Below the pieces are notes generated by a model. That model made no database searches. It was not told where the DNA came from and saw nothing but the letters and a program-made list of their open reading frames with translations. Of a DNA stretch of 32,000 bases, positions 29,839-32,000 are shown in pieces (positions within the stretch are counted from its first letter, which is position 1; every line of letters starts with the position of its first letter). This DNA is from Candidatus Heimdallarchaeota archaeon. Its GTDB lineage: Archaea; Asgardarchaeota; Heimdallarchaeia; JABLTI01. Position numbers and translations under genes: made by a program. The stretch is taken from NCBI GenBank assembly GCA_030614005.1, contig JAUWKS010000009.1:41068-73067 (forward strand). Reading direction: 5' to 3'.

Positions 29839-30108
29839 TGTAGTGATCATCCTGACATGCTTTCATACATACAGTAAAGAAATACAAAACCATAGTTTCC
29901 TTCGGAATTTTATAGTTATCCTATGAACTTATTATCTACGTACAAAATTTGTTGATATTATACCACTAAATAATATTTATAAAAGAAGAGCGATAAAAAG
30001 GAATAGTGATTATGAAAAGCGGATACTAATTAATTTATAAGTGGCCGAGAACATTAAAAAAGTTAATAATTTCATTAGTGCTGAAAAATTCGGGAAGTGC
30101 ACAACTAA

Positions 30109-30861
30109 ATGCCTATTGCTAGACAAGTAATGATACTAACAAAAGATGGATTGCTCCTTTTACACTACAAATTTAGAGGGGCAGAAGCATTGGCGATGGA
30201 AACAGATCCAGACCTATTCTCAGGAATGCTGTCAGCAATTCTATCGATAGCAAAGGAAACAACAGGGGGATTAGTACAAACAATAAACCAGGATAATTAT
30301 AACGTACTAGTAAGTGAAGGGGAGAAAATTTATGTCCTACTATTTATTGATGAAGAAAGTAGAGAATTATACAACATAGCGAAGGCAATGGTAGGGAGAT
30401 TTGAAGCGCAATTCAAAGAGGAATTGGGCGGAATAATTACTGACGTAACAATATATCAACAATTTATAGAAGAACTAGAAGAAATATACGCAGAAATATT
30501 TAGAGTAGATGCAGAACTATTAGCAAAAATAATACCTGAAGTAACTCAGATAAAAAACGTATCCATTTTTGAAAAACCAATGAACCATCAAGTATACAAT
30601 GGACCAAGAGATCCATTTGTAAGTGAATATGAACAGCAGTTTCAAGAAGTGGCACTGAAGATAATTGAATCATATGCAAACTTTGCCGAGAAAACATTGG
30701 AGTTCCATAAAAGAACGATTATAACGTTCAAAAATAGAGCAATTGTTCTTGAGGATTTGGGGTCACATGTGCTAATGTTTATCGGGGAACACGTAGACGA
30801 TATTCTAACAAAAATAAAACGAATACGCAAAAAAGCCGGTTTGCCGGCAGAGAGAAAATAA
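30109..30861 (+). CDS. Longin-like N-terminal domain fused to a roadblock/LC7-like C-terminal domain
   Basis: aa 1-130: VMILTKDGLLLLHY...DPDLFSGMLSAILSIAKE..GGL.QTI...YNVLV.....YVLLFID....L......MVGRFE.QF, the longin beta-beta-alpha-beta-beta-beta-alpha pattern. aa 135-245 show an alpha-beta-beta-alpha-beta-beta-beta-alpha roadblock-like pattern. Confidence 0.7.
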   Translation: MPIARQVMILTKDGLLLLHYKFRGAEALAMETDPDLFSGMLSAILSIAKETTGGLVQTINQDNYNVLVSEGEKIYVLLFIDEESRELYNIAKAMVGRFEAQFKEELGGIITDVTIYQQFIEELEEIYAEIFRVDAELLAKIIPEVTQIKNVSIFEKPMNHQVYNGPRDPFVSEYEQQFQEVALKIIESYANFAEKTLEFHKRTIITFKNRAIVLEDLGSHVLMFIGEHVDDILTKIKRIRKKAGLPAERK

Positions 30862-30916
30862 CTTTCTCCGCCCTTTCCATTTTTAACATAAATAGACAAC
30901 AGACAATAAAACAATT

Positions 30917-30940
30917 TTTTTAAAAACGTTTTTAAAAACG
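30917..30940. repeat. (TTTTTAAAAACG)x2 tandem repeat containing a perfect 22-bp palindrome
   Basis: 30917-30938 TTTTTAAAAACGTTTTTAAAAA is self-complementary. Confidence 0.7.
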
Positions 30941-31039
30941 AAAAGCGGATATGCCTCTTGCCAAAAAAAAGGCAGAAATTAGAGCAAGGAGCAAAAAGCT
31001 AACGAATAAATAAACAAAAAAAACGTTGGAGACAAGCTA

Positions 31040-31588
31040 ATGAGAGACGCAGTAAAGAAAATATGGCCAGAAATAGAATGGATAAAAGAAGAGACACTAA
31101 AGGAAAACGTCTACAAAACATGGGAAGACGCTATAGAACAAAGTGTACTAAGCGCAGAAGATTTGGAGAAAATACCATTCACACTGCTGATAAAAGATTG
31201 CAAAGTAACATTCATGGAACACAAAAGAGCAGTAGTACACATAGCAGTAGAAGCAGCAAAAGTAATGAACAAATTCTTCGGAGAGAAACTGCCAATAAAT
31301 ATGGATTACCTAATAGCAGGGTCAATATTAATTGATGTAGGAAAACTGCTAGAATATGTAATGAAAGATGGAAAAGCAGTAGTAGGAAAAACAGGAAAAT
31401 TGCTCAGACACCCATTCACAGGAGTAGGACTAGCAATGAAATGCAATATACCAGATGAAGTATGTCATATGATAGCAACACACTCAAAAGAAGGAAACCT
31501 AGGAAAAAGAACAGTAGAAGGAATAATTGTTCATCACGCAGACTTCATAAGCTACGAACCATTAAAAGATGACACATTGAAAGTATAA
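31040..31588 (+). CDS. HD/HDIG-superfamily metal-dependent phosphohydrolase (ID instead of HD)
   Basis: FMEHKRAV, LIAGSILIDVGKLLEY, RHPFTG, HMIATHS and IVHHADF. Confidence 0.8.
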   Translation: MRDAVKKIWPEIEWIKEETLKENVYKTWEDAIEQSVLSAEDLEKIPFTLLIKDCKVTFMEHKRAVVHIAVEAAKVMNKFFGEKLPINMDYLIAGSILIDVGKLLEYVMKDGKAVVGKTGKLLRHPFTGVGLAMKCNIPDEVCHMIATHSKEGNLGKRTVEGIIVHHADFISYEPLKDDTLKV

Positions 31589-31622
31589 AAATAAAAAGAA
31601 CACTTAAAAAAAAACAGCTCGA

Positions 31623-31650
31623 GAAGAGCACAATCGCTCTTCGATTTTTC
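31623..31650. terminator. Hairpin between convergent HD and GNAT genes
   Basis: GAAGAGC-acaatc-GCTCTTC followed by GATTTTTC; an A-run upstream provides a U-tract on the minus strand. Confidence 0.55.
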
Positions 31651-31668
31651 TAATAAATGATTTTGAAG

Positions 31669-32000
31669 TCACTTGACGCGATACCAGTAAATATACTCCT
31701 CTTTGAAACCGAGCTTATTATAGAGACGAAGGGCGGCAATATTGTTCTTCATAACCTGCAAATAGGCAGAAGTAGCACCATGCTCTTTACCAAGCTGTAA
31801 AAGCTTTAACATAATCTGCTCTCCATAACCTTTCTTGCGCTGGGAAACTTTGGTAAAAACATCGTAAAAACTAATCATAGAACCATCGAGAACAGCAAAA
31901 CCACAAGAAACAACTTTACCTTTAACAAGTAAGGAAACATAAAAAGTGGGAGGAAGAATACGCTCGAGAATATGAACTAAAGCAGAACGATTTTTAGCAG
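31669..32000 (-). CDS. GNAT-family acetyltransferase, 5' part outside the window
   Basis: Open frame to the window edge: ...KVVSCGFAVLDGSMISFYDVFT...QRKKGYG...AYLQVMKNNIAALRLYNKLGF. Contains acetyl-CoA motif A and the N.AA..LY.KLGF motif. Confidence 0.88.
   Translation of the reverse strand, partial: AKNRSALVHILERILPPTFYVSLLVKGKVVSCGFAVLDGSMISFYDVFTKVSQRKKGYGEQIMLKLLQLGKEHGATSAYLQVMKNNIAALRLYNKLGFKEEYIYWYRVK

Follow-up and report, generated by a model that had tools for sequence, protein, structure and literature searches.

At the right-hand end of the 32,000-nucleotide stretch of Heimdallarchaeota DNA analysed here (the window), neighbouring genes on opposite strands favour opposite third-position nucleotides. 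This raises the question of what could bias the silent sites of a piece of DNA without regard to the direction in which its genes are read, and where such a bias would be centred.

Strand asymmetry at the edge of the window

To describe the zone in one frame of reference, we expressed the A/T skew of four-fold degenerate sites in + strand terms, moving from its outer edge to the end of the contig. At that outer edge, ~4.3 kb from the focal tRNA gene placed by synteny below, a FIST-domain gene (27627..28877, + strand; Pfam FIST and FIST_C) has A61 T56, a skew of +0.04. The gene for a DAGK/YegS-type lipid kinase (28900..29850, − strand; Pfam DAGK_cat and YegS_C) lies in the outer part of the zone and carries A39 C27 G9 T70 on its coding strand, equivalent to +0.28, and a Roadblock/longin-like gene in the middle (30109..30858, + strand; a weak domain assignment, with Robl_LC7 at E 0.035 and Thioredoxin_6 at E 4e-4 in Pfam) reaches +0.72 (A56 C7 G17 T9). 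Further in, the bias is near saturation in an HD/HDIG-like phosphohydrolase gene (31040..31585, + strand; NCBIfam HDIG domain at E 1.2e-5, under the curated cut-off), which stands at +0.93 (A59 C2 G5 T2). The last gene encodes a GNAT acetyltransferase (31672..32000, − strand; Pfam Acetyltransf_1, E 3e-12) and is cut by the contig end to its C-terminal 109 codons; its codon use is the mirror image of its neighbour's, with A1 C14 G0 T35 on the coding strand, or +0.94 on the + strand. The intergenic spacers share the bias: 30862..31039 holds A82 C31 G25 T40, an AT skew of +0.34 despite T7 and T5 runs, and 31589..31668 holds A37 C12 G11 T20, a skew of +0.30.

An earlier note on this DNA had described such a rightward build-up, and its hand counts proved accurate. 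Our recount again gave 51 of 55 Val/Ala/Thr/Pro/Gly codons ending in A in the HD-like gene, GTA at 12 of 16 Val codons in the longin-like gene, and the same A and T totals in its sample lines (31 A, 7 T at 31081-31140; 29 A, 8 T at 31201-31260; 14 A, 23 T at 1081-1140). Two-fold sites of the HD-like gene do favour C (TTC 6/6, TAC 3/4, CAC 5/7, AAC 3/5). In GNAT only one four-fold codon ends in A, Ile is always ATT (6/6), Arg is solely CGT/CGC, and G-ending codons are common (15 G-ending versus 11 A-ending among Lys/Glu/Gln/TTR-Leu/AGR-Arg). The preference for T-ending codons that the note saw in the first 27 kb was not borne out, as genes there are balanced, with per-gene skews of −0.17 to +0.18. 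Its description of the zone as one of T avoidance captures the loss of T from the + strand, but the asymmetry opposes purine to pyrimidine: A is gained, T and C are lost, and G is kept. Four-fold sites on the strand running toward the tRNA gene are about 85% A, 8-20% G, 0-5% C and 1-4% T; with this strand loaded with A and G, the away strand is T+C-rich and poor in A and G.

Between 30001 and 32000 the whole-sequence AT skew is +0.303, a value matched or exceeded by 5 of 6,803 genome-wide 2-kb windows (SD 0.084), and the HD-like gene is among the two most A-biased of the 2,830 long ORFs of this genome (G000; mean four-fold skew −0.01, SD 0.17). The remainder of the contig (C59) stays within +/−0.3, and the GC content of the zone, 0.34-0.36, is unremarkable. 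Orthologues do not keep the same codon bias everywhere. HD-like orthologues span skews from +0.97, in the relative G010, to −0.33, with +0.06 in G005, and DAGK orthologues stand at +0.45 in G009 and +0.36 in G011, compared with −0.09 and −0.12 in G007 and G005, where the bias is lost. An independent 8.9-kb contig (run X1) bridges positions 27000-31767, including the 29.9-30.1 kb interval, and further short contigs continue beyond position 32000. The population is present in metagenomes from marine sediment and cold seeps. Because the skew is significant genome-wide, orthologues in G005 and G007 lack it and the bridging contig supports the assembly, the observation on which the earlier note was built stands. 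The minus-strand genes GNAT and DAGK are skewed in the same DNA-strand sense as the others, making this a property of the DNA strand and not of gene direction, as that note had argued. On the sequence evidence, the last 3-4 kb of the window are one arm of a two-sided zone that is independent of gene direction, hereafter a halo.

The tRNA-Val(GAC) locus in related genomes

The contig ends inside GNAT, and in relatives the gene row continues into a tRNA-Val(GAC) gene, which would lie ~0.6 kb past the window edge. No tRNA was found in the window, and tRNA-Val(GAC) is absent from the entire G000 assembly, so its position here is inferred from synteny with G010, G009, G006 and G011. An exact-match look-up of the HD-like protein yielded no record by which the contig could be lengthened. 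A focal site just beyond the edge is what the earlier note had predicted.

In G010, whose HD-like protein is 96% identical, the row continues with a full-length GNAT orthologue (94% identical; A5 C12 G0 T106) that starts 140 nt before tRNA-Val(GAC), found at L013 14895-15000 (Rfam 42.6 bits). To the left of the tRNA, four-fold skew on the + strand is −0.15 in PurM, −0.06 in HisA, +0.34 in FIST, +0.67 in the longin-like gene, +0.97 in the HD-like gene and +0.91 in GNAT (−); to the right it is −0.87 in p192 (−), −0.73 in p627 (−), −0.28 in p203 (−) and −0.08 in p259 (+). The AT skew passes from +0.51 to −0.62 across L013 14.8-15.0 kb, and this change of sign falls between co-directional genes. 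Seven genomes of the genus, biased and unbiased ones included, share the gene order PurM-HisA-FIST-(DAGK)-longin-like-HD-like. The PurM match in G010 contains a stop codon.

Out to 1.6 kb from the tRNA, skew in G000, G010 and G009 stays at about +0.9 to 1.0; it is +0.7 to 0.9 (G009 +0.4) at 1.6-2.4 kb and ~+0.4 at 2.4-3.2 kb, one noisy bin excepted, and past 4.4 kb it is close to 0. The decay on the right-hand side in G010 is a mirror image, reaching ~0 by about 3-4 kb, and the silent-site gradient is monotonic with distance from the tRNA. The same gene takes different values at different distances: FIST has +0.34 at 3.3 kb in G010 versus +0.04 at 4.3 kb in G000, being 1 kb closer to the tRNA in G010 because the DAGK gene (+0.28) that intervenes in G000 is absent there. 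Paralogues of p627 elsewhere in G000 range from −0.34 to +0.12, compared with +0.73 for the tRNA-adjacent copy. These comparisons indicate that the bias is set by distance to the tRNA, not by the identity or direction of the gene.

The presence of a tRNA gene does not by itself suffice, since there is no halo in G005, which shares both the tRNA-Val and its upstream motif. The motif itself, 17 nt long, was rejected as the halo determinant on account of its presence in halo-free G005 and its single occurrence in G000. Nor is the p192/p627 element required, as halos occur without it in G009 and G011, and the tRNA intron was rejected as the cause because G009 and G006 have halos around a tRNA without one. 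No att-type repeat of the tRNA that could mark the far end of the integrated element was found within 16 kb downstream in G010 (to the contig end).

Asymmetry around tRNA genes genome-wide

Around the 32 tRNA genes of G000, toward-strand skew is +0.143 within 1 kb, +0.113 at 1-2 kb and +0.089 at 2-3 kb, falling to ~0 beyond 4.5 kb. In a permutation test on the first 2 kb (+0.13), none of 3000 random placements reached the observed value (z 7.9), and flanking genes reading toward (+0.157) and away from the tRNA (+0.119) are similar. The result was replicated in G010 with the focal locus left out (+0.138, p 3e-4) and in G016, from another family, in both gene orientations (+0.263, p 1.6e-4); replication in G005 was weak (+0.11). 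Codon positions 1+2 shift likewise (+0.162 in toward genes and +0.100 in away genes, p 0.009), and among nine HD-like orthologues the skew at positions 1+2 follows the four-fold skew (rho 0.79). Together, these measurements indicate that in Heimdall-class Asgard archaea most tRNA genes are surrounded by a weaker asymmetry, with the focal locus as the strongest case in G000.

Genome-wide, intergenic DNA is less skewed than four-fold sites, at +0.10 within 500 bp of tRNAs and +0.02 at 0.5-3 kb, and so weak a distant skew is unexpected under uniform mutation pressure. Halo strength bears no obvious relation to tRNA identity; the SRP RNA gene has no halo and that of RNase P RNA a weak one only, and 5S and 16S rRNA are absent from the G000 assembly. 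Just six sharp skew flips occur in G000, none of them clean like that of G010, and its other strong islands (on C83, C41, C118, C55 and C113) contain no Rfam RNA above threshold. Considered as hidden halos, contig ends show a weak mean effect (+0.04), with 13 ends above +0.3 versus 3 below −0.3.

Candidate causes and meaning

In our reading, 28.9-32.0 kb is the left arm of a two-sided halo, about 3-4 kb in radius and by synteny centred on tRNA-Val(GAC), and its probable cause is a local strand-asymmetric substitution bias. The direction of change is consistent with this reading. When orthologues from genomes without a halo serve as the reference, the prevailing changes are T>A and T>C in the HD-like gene and A>T on the coding strand of DAGK, and in the G000/G010/G001 trio T>A per T site is ~5x more frequent than A>T per A site. 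Within the halo, the strand running 5' to 3' toward the tRNA is purine-loaded, chiefly with A, at all weakly constrained positions, so that tRNA-ward genes use A-ending codons and the away-reading GNAT and DAGK genes T/C-ending ones. The bias would be local and decay with distance, the away strand losing A and G through A→T, G→T and A→G changes (T→A, C→A and T→C when read on the toward strand), in a process at quasi-equilibrium that would act on any DNA located there. A-specific mutagenesis of the − strand, one of the causes suggested in the earlier note, agrees with the loss of A from that strand but leaves out the loss of G.

As for the process itself, we can only speculate that DNA synthesis or unwinding begins at the tRNA gene and proceeds outward for 1-4 kb on both sides, by fork restart, R-loop-primed or nick-primed synthesis, or outward transcription. 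The away-pointing strand would thereby be repeatedly single-stranded or newly copied, and the observed spectrum would follow if purines were lost and A was then inserted opposite the gap. An R-loop or single-strand exposure is a possible cause. The most novel form of this proposal is that Heimdall-class tRNA genes are recurrent outward DNA-synthesis start sites (through R-loop-primed/restart-type initiation or long-patch repair), each with a kilobase-wide mutational footprint that rewrites how neighbouring genes use codons and, to a slight degree, the composition of their proteins; we advance it tentatively, and with more doubt than confidence.

Selection on the DNA or RNA itself, by which purine loading toward tRNA genes would be kept for a function such as chromatin exclusion, R-loop control or insulation of a strongly transcribed tRNA unit, seems to us unlikely. 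It would suit the near-absence of skew from intergenic DNA 0.5-3 kb from tRNAs where four-fold sites are skewed, as well as the conserved A-rich promoter-like motif and polypurine tracts upstream of these tRNAs; that poly(A) tracts and tRNA genes in yeast are prone to R-loops (PMC4911931) also counts in its favour. However, such selection must act on almost all silent sites across 4 kb, shifting amino-acid-changing positions too, and a bias that declines smoothly with distance and has also been imposed on a mobile-element gene resembles a passive gradient. The version proposed in the earlier note, selection against U-tract terminators, was rejected on account of the six T5-T7 runs on the + strand at 30-32 kb.

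The same note had suggested a chromosomal replication origin or terminus, so that the zone would be ordinary replication skew close to its switch point. We regard this as very improbable, even though the sign flips at a single point with origin-type symmetry. The skew is back to zero within ~4 kb and fills no replichore, and the same pattern recurs around some 30 tRNA genes in each genome. All Cdc6_C matches are on contigs other than C59 and the G010 contig (C13), and no Orc1/Cdc6 gene adjoins the halo. The asymmetry is also of purine versus pyrimidine, not of G+T versus A+C, and is near saturation (~87% A at four-fold sites); to our knowledge, an amplitude of ~0.9 is far above that of any replication skew known. 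The likeness to replication asymmetry that switches sign at bacterial and archaeal oriC, and to the origin-centred bidirectional asymmetries known in bacteria and at human CpG islands (Polak and Arndt 2009, PMC2817419), lies in a DNA-strand bias to which gene direction is irrelevant and in the mirror-symmetric reversal of sign.

We give still less credence to the chance adjacency of genes from two codon-usage classes, one A-ending and the other T-ending with EF-2-like 'optimal codons', in which translation or expression and not the DNA strand would set the pattern. EF-2 has the A3-avoiding codon set of GNAT in 8/8 members of the genus that were examined (coding skew −0.43 to −0.94), which means that translational selection is able to produce that set (NNT, AAG, GAG, CGT, ATT), and other probably abundant proteins are mildly T-ending. 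Yet GNAT has as low a third-position A content (~0.08) as EF-2, the gene with the strongest bias out of 2,476, and for an accessory acetyltransferase this is implausible. Orthologues switch class with distance from the tRNA, spacers and codon positions 1+2 are affected too, and the coding-strand skews of adjoining opposite-strand genes are negatively correlated genome-wide (r −0.25, p 2e-14). That the segment is foreign DNA of distinct composition, or that the assembly is chimeric, is scarcely credible: the zone does sit at a contig end, an integrated element lies right of the tRNA in G010 and tRNA genes are integration sites, but elements usually integrate downstream whereas the halo is apparently somewhat stronger upstream of tRNAs (+0.17 versus +0.09 downstream, genome-wide; p 0.08), and the shared gene order in the genus, the ordinary GC content and the bridging contig all speak against it.

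A local substitution bias of this kind also differs from the known systems that it recalls. In vertebrate mitochondrial DNA, heavy/light-strand asymmetry is graded by single-stranded time and its spectrum is one of deamination (C→T, A→G), the exposed strand becoming G+T-rich; the halo similarly has silent sites near saturation on one strand and a gradient with distance from a start point, the form that damage to a template exposed transiently as a single strand would take, but it is chromosomal and two-sided, A and G are lost from one strand, and T→A transversions dominate. Szybalski's rule likewise yields a strand rich in A and G, but there purine loading follows the mRNA-synonymous strand, whereas the minus-strand genes GNAT and DAGK are pyrimidine-loaded. 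Diversity-generating retroelements, which pair template and variable repeats and encode a reverse transcriptase, direct A-specific mutagenesis to a target of ~100-200 bp, unlike the 4-kb scale, two-sided symmetry and recurrence of the halo. Heavily transcribed eukaryotic tRNA genes also have unusual substitutions in their flanks, where transcription-associated mutagenesis reaches only ~20-40 bp beyond the transcribed unit and consists mostly of C→T and G→A changes, an excess linked to the non-template strand (Thornlow et al. 2018, PMC6130373). The halo, by contrast, extends 3-4 kb on both sides whichever the tRNA orientation, and T→A and T→C, in a purine/pyrimidine exchange, are dominant. Our literature searches turned up no account of a strand asymmetry that is centred on tRNA genes and extends over kilobases.

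Archaeal skews were recently concluded to follow chiefly gene-strand bias and translational selection (PMC12999951); halo skew ignores gene orientation, contrary to that conclusion. Because a halo mimics foreign codon usage, it may give rise to false calls of horizontal transfer, and because it removes stop codons on both strands, it may create spurious long ORFs. Halos also tend to coincide with assembly breaks and bias estimates of codon adaptation. We know of very little experimental work on replication, repair or transcription-replication conflicts in the Asgard lineage, whose Heimdall-class members are the closest known archaeal relatives of eukaryotes. If halos are mutational, the sequence would record a DNA transaction that recurs at the tRNA genes of the archaeal lineage most closely related to eukaryotes.

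Purine excess at the right edge of the window

The right end of the window (G000:C59:41068-73067) coincides exactly with the end of its contig in the source genome, G000, a 3.62-Mb metagenome-assembled genome of 126 contigs and 33.5% GC. We recounted the region of 30-32 kb and reproduced all of the hand counts of the earlier note, along with the build-up that it had described: whole-sequence AT skew, about 0 at 27 kb, reaches +0.35 at 30.5-32 kb. The preference for T-ending codons that it had reported for the first 27 kb did not hold, as genes there are balanced. Its avoidance of T on the plus strand stands in part; T is indeed lost, but so is C, with A gained and G kept. 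The asymmetry of this zone is one of purine versus pyrimidine.

Gene by gene, plus-strand A/T skew at four-fold sites (the measure used below unless stated) is +0.04 in FIST (27627-28877, plus; coding-strand counts A61 C18 G34 T56), +0.28 in DAGK (28900-29850, minus; A39 C27 G9 T70), +0.72 in the longin-like gene (30109-30858, plus; A56 C7 G17 T9), +0.93 in the HD-like gene (31040-31585, plus; A59 C2 G5 T2) and +0.94 in the GNAT fragment (31672-31998, minus; A1 C14 G0 T35), which is a genuine gene by its Pfam match (E 3e-12). Two-fold sites of the plus strand prefer C to T, the minus-strand GNAT gene prefers AAG and GAG, and the spacers between the zone genes are also biased (+0.34 and +0.30). 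Across the 2,830 long ORFs of G000, skew averages -0.01 (SD 0.17) and the HD-like gene is among the two most A-biased; the overall skew of 30-32 kb is equalled by 5 of 6,803 2-kb windows genome-wide. Together, these measurements confirm the strand bias at the window's right end.

A two-sided halo at tRNA-Val(GAC)

Orthologues of the HD-like protein occur in most genomes of the genus, and in seven of them synteny extends over the row PurM-HisA-FIST-(DAGK)-longin-like-HD-like. In the relative G010 (HD-like protein 96% identical), the row continues through a full-length GNAT gene to an intron-containing tRNA-Val(GAC) gene (locus L013 14895-15000; Rfam 42.6 bits); the same tRNA gene directly follows the HD-like gene in G009, G005 and G006, and also lies after it in G011. 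Because tRNA-Val(GAC) is absent from the entire G000 assembly, while relatives carry it after this row, the G000 copy most likely lies in the assembly gap, about 0.6 kb beyond position 32000.

The row itself varies. A DAGK/YegS-type kinase gene separates FIST from the longin-like gene in G000, G009, G005, G007 and G011 and is absent in G010 (window 28900-29850 compared with L013 12190-12415), and only G000, G010 and G001 have GNAT in the interval from the HD-like gene to tRNA-Val. The HD/HDIG-like protein (31040-31585) shares 60-76% identity with proteins from contigs that carry the labels of Ignavibacteria/Melioribacteraceae, Anaerolineae, Zixibacteria and other bacteria, which suggests that this small, highly conserved phosphohydrolase was transferred between domains; part of the matches at 70-76% may come from misbinned archaeal contigs.

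In G010, plus-strand skew left of the tRNA gene runs from PurM (-0.15) and HisA (-0.06) through FIST (+0.34), longin-like (+0.67) and HD-like (+0.97) to GNAT (minus strand, +0.91). To its right are the genes p192 (minus, -0.87), p627 (minus, -0.73), p203 (minus, -0.28) and p259 (plus, -0.08). As GNAT, p192 and p627 are all minus-strand, the flip in sign at the tRNA is not a change of gene direction. Binned by distance from the tRNA, skew in G000, G010 and G009 is about +0.9 to 1.0 at 0-1.6 kb, +0.7 to 0.9 at 1.6-2.4 kb (G009, +0.4), about +0.4 at 2.4-3.2 kb (one noisy bin excepted), +0.1 to 0.3 at 3.2-4.4 kb (G009 near 0) and about 0 beyond; the three curves are alike, and the right arm in G010 mirrors the left. 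FIST has a skew of +0.34 in G010, where it lies 3.3 kb from the tRNA without DAGK, and of +0.04 in G000, where it lies at 4.3 kb with DAGK, of intermediate skew, in between. The bias is set by position, not by gene identity. Among tRNA loci in G010, that of tRNA-Val is an outlier (+0.87, every other being +0.37 or less), and the window contains the left arm of what is, in G000, the strongest strand-bias halo centred on a tRNA gene.

The G010 genes right of the tRNA are part of an integrated element that includes the winged-helix protein p627 and a PD-(D/E)XK nuclease. Other G000 loci carry p627 paralogues that lack the skew (-0.34 to +0.12), and the halo was therefore imposed on resident DNA, not imported with the element. 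A recurrent gene set, comprising a 627-aa protein (N-terminal winged helix and a large further domain), a PD-(D/E)XK (Cas4-like) nuclease and small Lys/Glu-rich proteins, adjoins the tRNA in G010 (L013 15005-19013) and has several diverged copies in G000 (C122:949-5801, C78:7664-11132, C9:130702-134193, C67:43312-46793). The set probably represents integrated elements of one family; a search in G010 for an att-type repeat of the tRNA found none in the 16 kb downstream, up to the contig end.

Strand bias around other tRNA genes

In a meta-profile of the 32 G000 tRNAs called by aragorn, skew on the strand running 5' to 3' toward the tRNA is +0.143 at <1 kb (p 9e-6), +0.113 at 1-2 kb, +0.089 at 2-3 kb, +0.045 at 3-4.5 kb and about 0 thereafter, with genes reading toward (+0.157) and away from (+0.119) the tRNA equally affected. 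None of 3,000 sets of random intergenic focal points reached the observed value (+0.128, against a null of 0.000 ± 0.016). Genome-wide, coding-strand skew is negatively correlated between opposite-strand neighbour genes (r -0.25, p 2e-14). G010 has a toward-strand skew of +0.138 (p 3e-4) when the tRNA-Val locus is left out, and G005 a weak tRNA-associated skew (+0.11). In the complete genome G016, which belongs to a different family of the class, the signal is strong (+0.263 at <1 kb, p 1.6e-4), present in both gene orientations and reaches about 4.5 kb. All 40 tRNA matches on its 3.08-Mb chromosome (G016:C1) fall at 1.11-3.08 Mb, most at 1.77-2.33 Mb; with 150 of 230 first-look candidates scored, its tRNA genes would be markedly clustered in one part of the chromosome.

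Silent-site skew exceeds +0.3 toward the end at 13 G000 contig ends (for example the left ends of C113, C42 and C110 and the right ends of C55 and C118) and away from it at 3, which suggests that contigs often break at unassembled tRNA loci and their variable surroundings.

Across the genus, tRNA-Val(GAC), tRNA-Val(TAC), tRNA-Pro(TGG) and one tRNA-Ala are preceded, at a distance of about 30-45 nt, by a conserved motif, AACGAAAGATTCAAAAA, with an A-rich tail after it (L013 14838-14861 in G010; G000 C8:40780-40796; L015 9817; L017 9943; L018 9464 and 8052; L046 5942; L053 5955). It resembles a promoter element that would serve some of the tRNA genes; G000 has a single exact copy, and the motif is present in G005, whose tRNA-Val has no halo. 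In G011, about 700 nt of nearly T-free polypurine (L018 8040-8760, minus strand) upstream of a second intron-containing tRNA gene covers a flavodoxin-like ORF with nearly all codons A-ending. A sharp flip also occurs at G000 C83:1923-7909 (L019), but no tRNA is detectable there: two A-ending genes (+0.68 to +0.74) are followed by EF-2 on the same strand (A8 C58 G5 T242), after which comes a convergent ABC ATPase gene, again A-ending. The order of two A-ending genes and T-ending EF-2 is kept in G010, G005, G004 and G007; a halo with its centre at the EF-2 promoter may explain the flip, and so may translational selection together with coincidence.

Substitution, selection and consequences for annotation

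A local, strand-asymmetric process of substitution is the probable cause. Skew decays smoothly with distance, a mobile-element gene carries imposed skew, and codon positions 1+2 shift likewise (toward genes +0.162, away genes +0.100, p 0.009), following four-fold skew across nine HD-like orthologues (rho 0.79). Relative to halo-free orthologues, the HD-like gene has on balance changed by T>A and T>C, and DAGK by the complementary substitutions; within the trio G000, G010 and G001, T>A per T site is about five times A>T per A site. Against such a process, or unexplained by it, intergenic skew genome-wide is confined to <500 bp from tRNAs, G005 shares the tRNA and upstream motif yet lacks a halo, and halo amplitude across species does not follow tRNA identity. 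Further, the codon set of GNAT is also that of EF-2 in all genomes of the genus, and part of it is therefore a translational optimum. The orthologue skews, the neighbour-gene correlation and the p627 paralogues speak against codon-usage classes. Between them, the controls on gene orientation, random focal points, paralogues, gene insertion and independent assembly address the main objections to the pattern.

The purine-poor strand always runs 5' to 3' away from the tRNA gene. Forks that leave the gene would use it as their lagging-strand template; in nick-primed synthesis running outward it would be the strand that is displaced or newly made, and in outward transcription the non-template strand. 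If purines were lost from this strand and A was inserted across from the gap, its partner would change by T->A and C->A, and deamination of adenine would add T->C. For a break at the tRNA gene followed by resection, the same chemistry predicts a skew of opposite sign. Foreign DNA or misassembly is countered by synteny, GC content and an independent contig. A classical origin or terminus does not fit a skew that is gone within 4 kb and recurs at about 30 sites in each genome, and the G000 and G010 contigs concerned carry no Cdc6_C gene; U-tract avoidance fails on the six T5-T7 runs of the plus strand.

We found no description of a tRNA-centred strand-bias pattern in the literature. Skew switches centred on origins, those around human CpG islands among them, share its symmetry but differ in scale, anchor and spectrum (PMC2817419); mutagenesis at eukaryotic tRNA genes reaches only about 20-40 bp (PMC6130373), and a 2026 survey that ascribes archaeal skews to gene-strand bias and translational selection leaves tRNA genes unmentioned (PMC12999951). 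Where one strand is depleted of T, stop codons disappear from several frames of both strands, and halos (for example window 30500-30914 and L013 14927-16436) therefore contain long spurious ORFs, such as Leu/Phe/Ser-rich ORFs of 145-162 aa antisense to p627. Gene callers may mis-annotate such regions.
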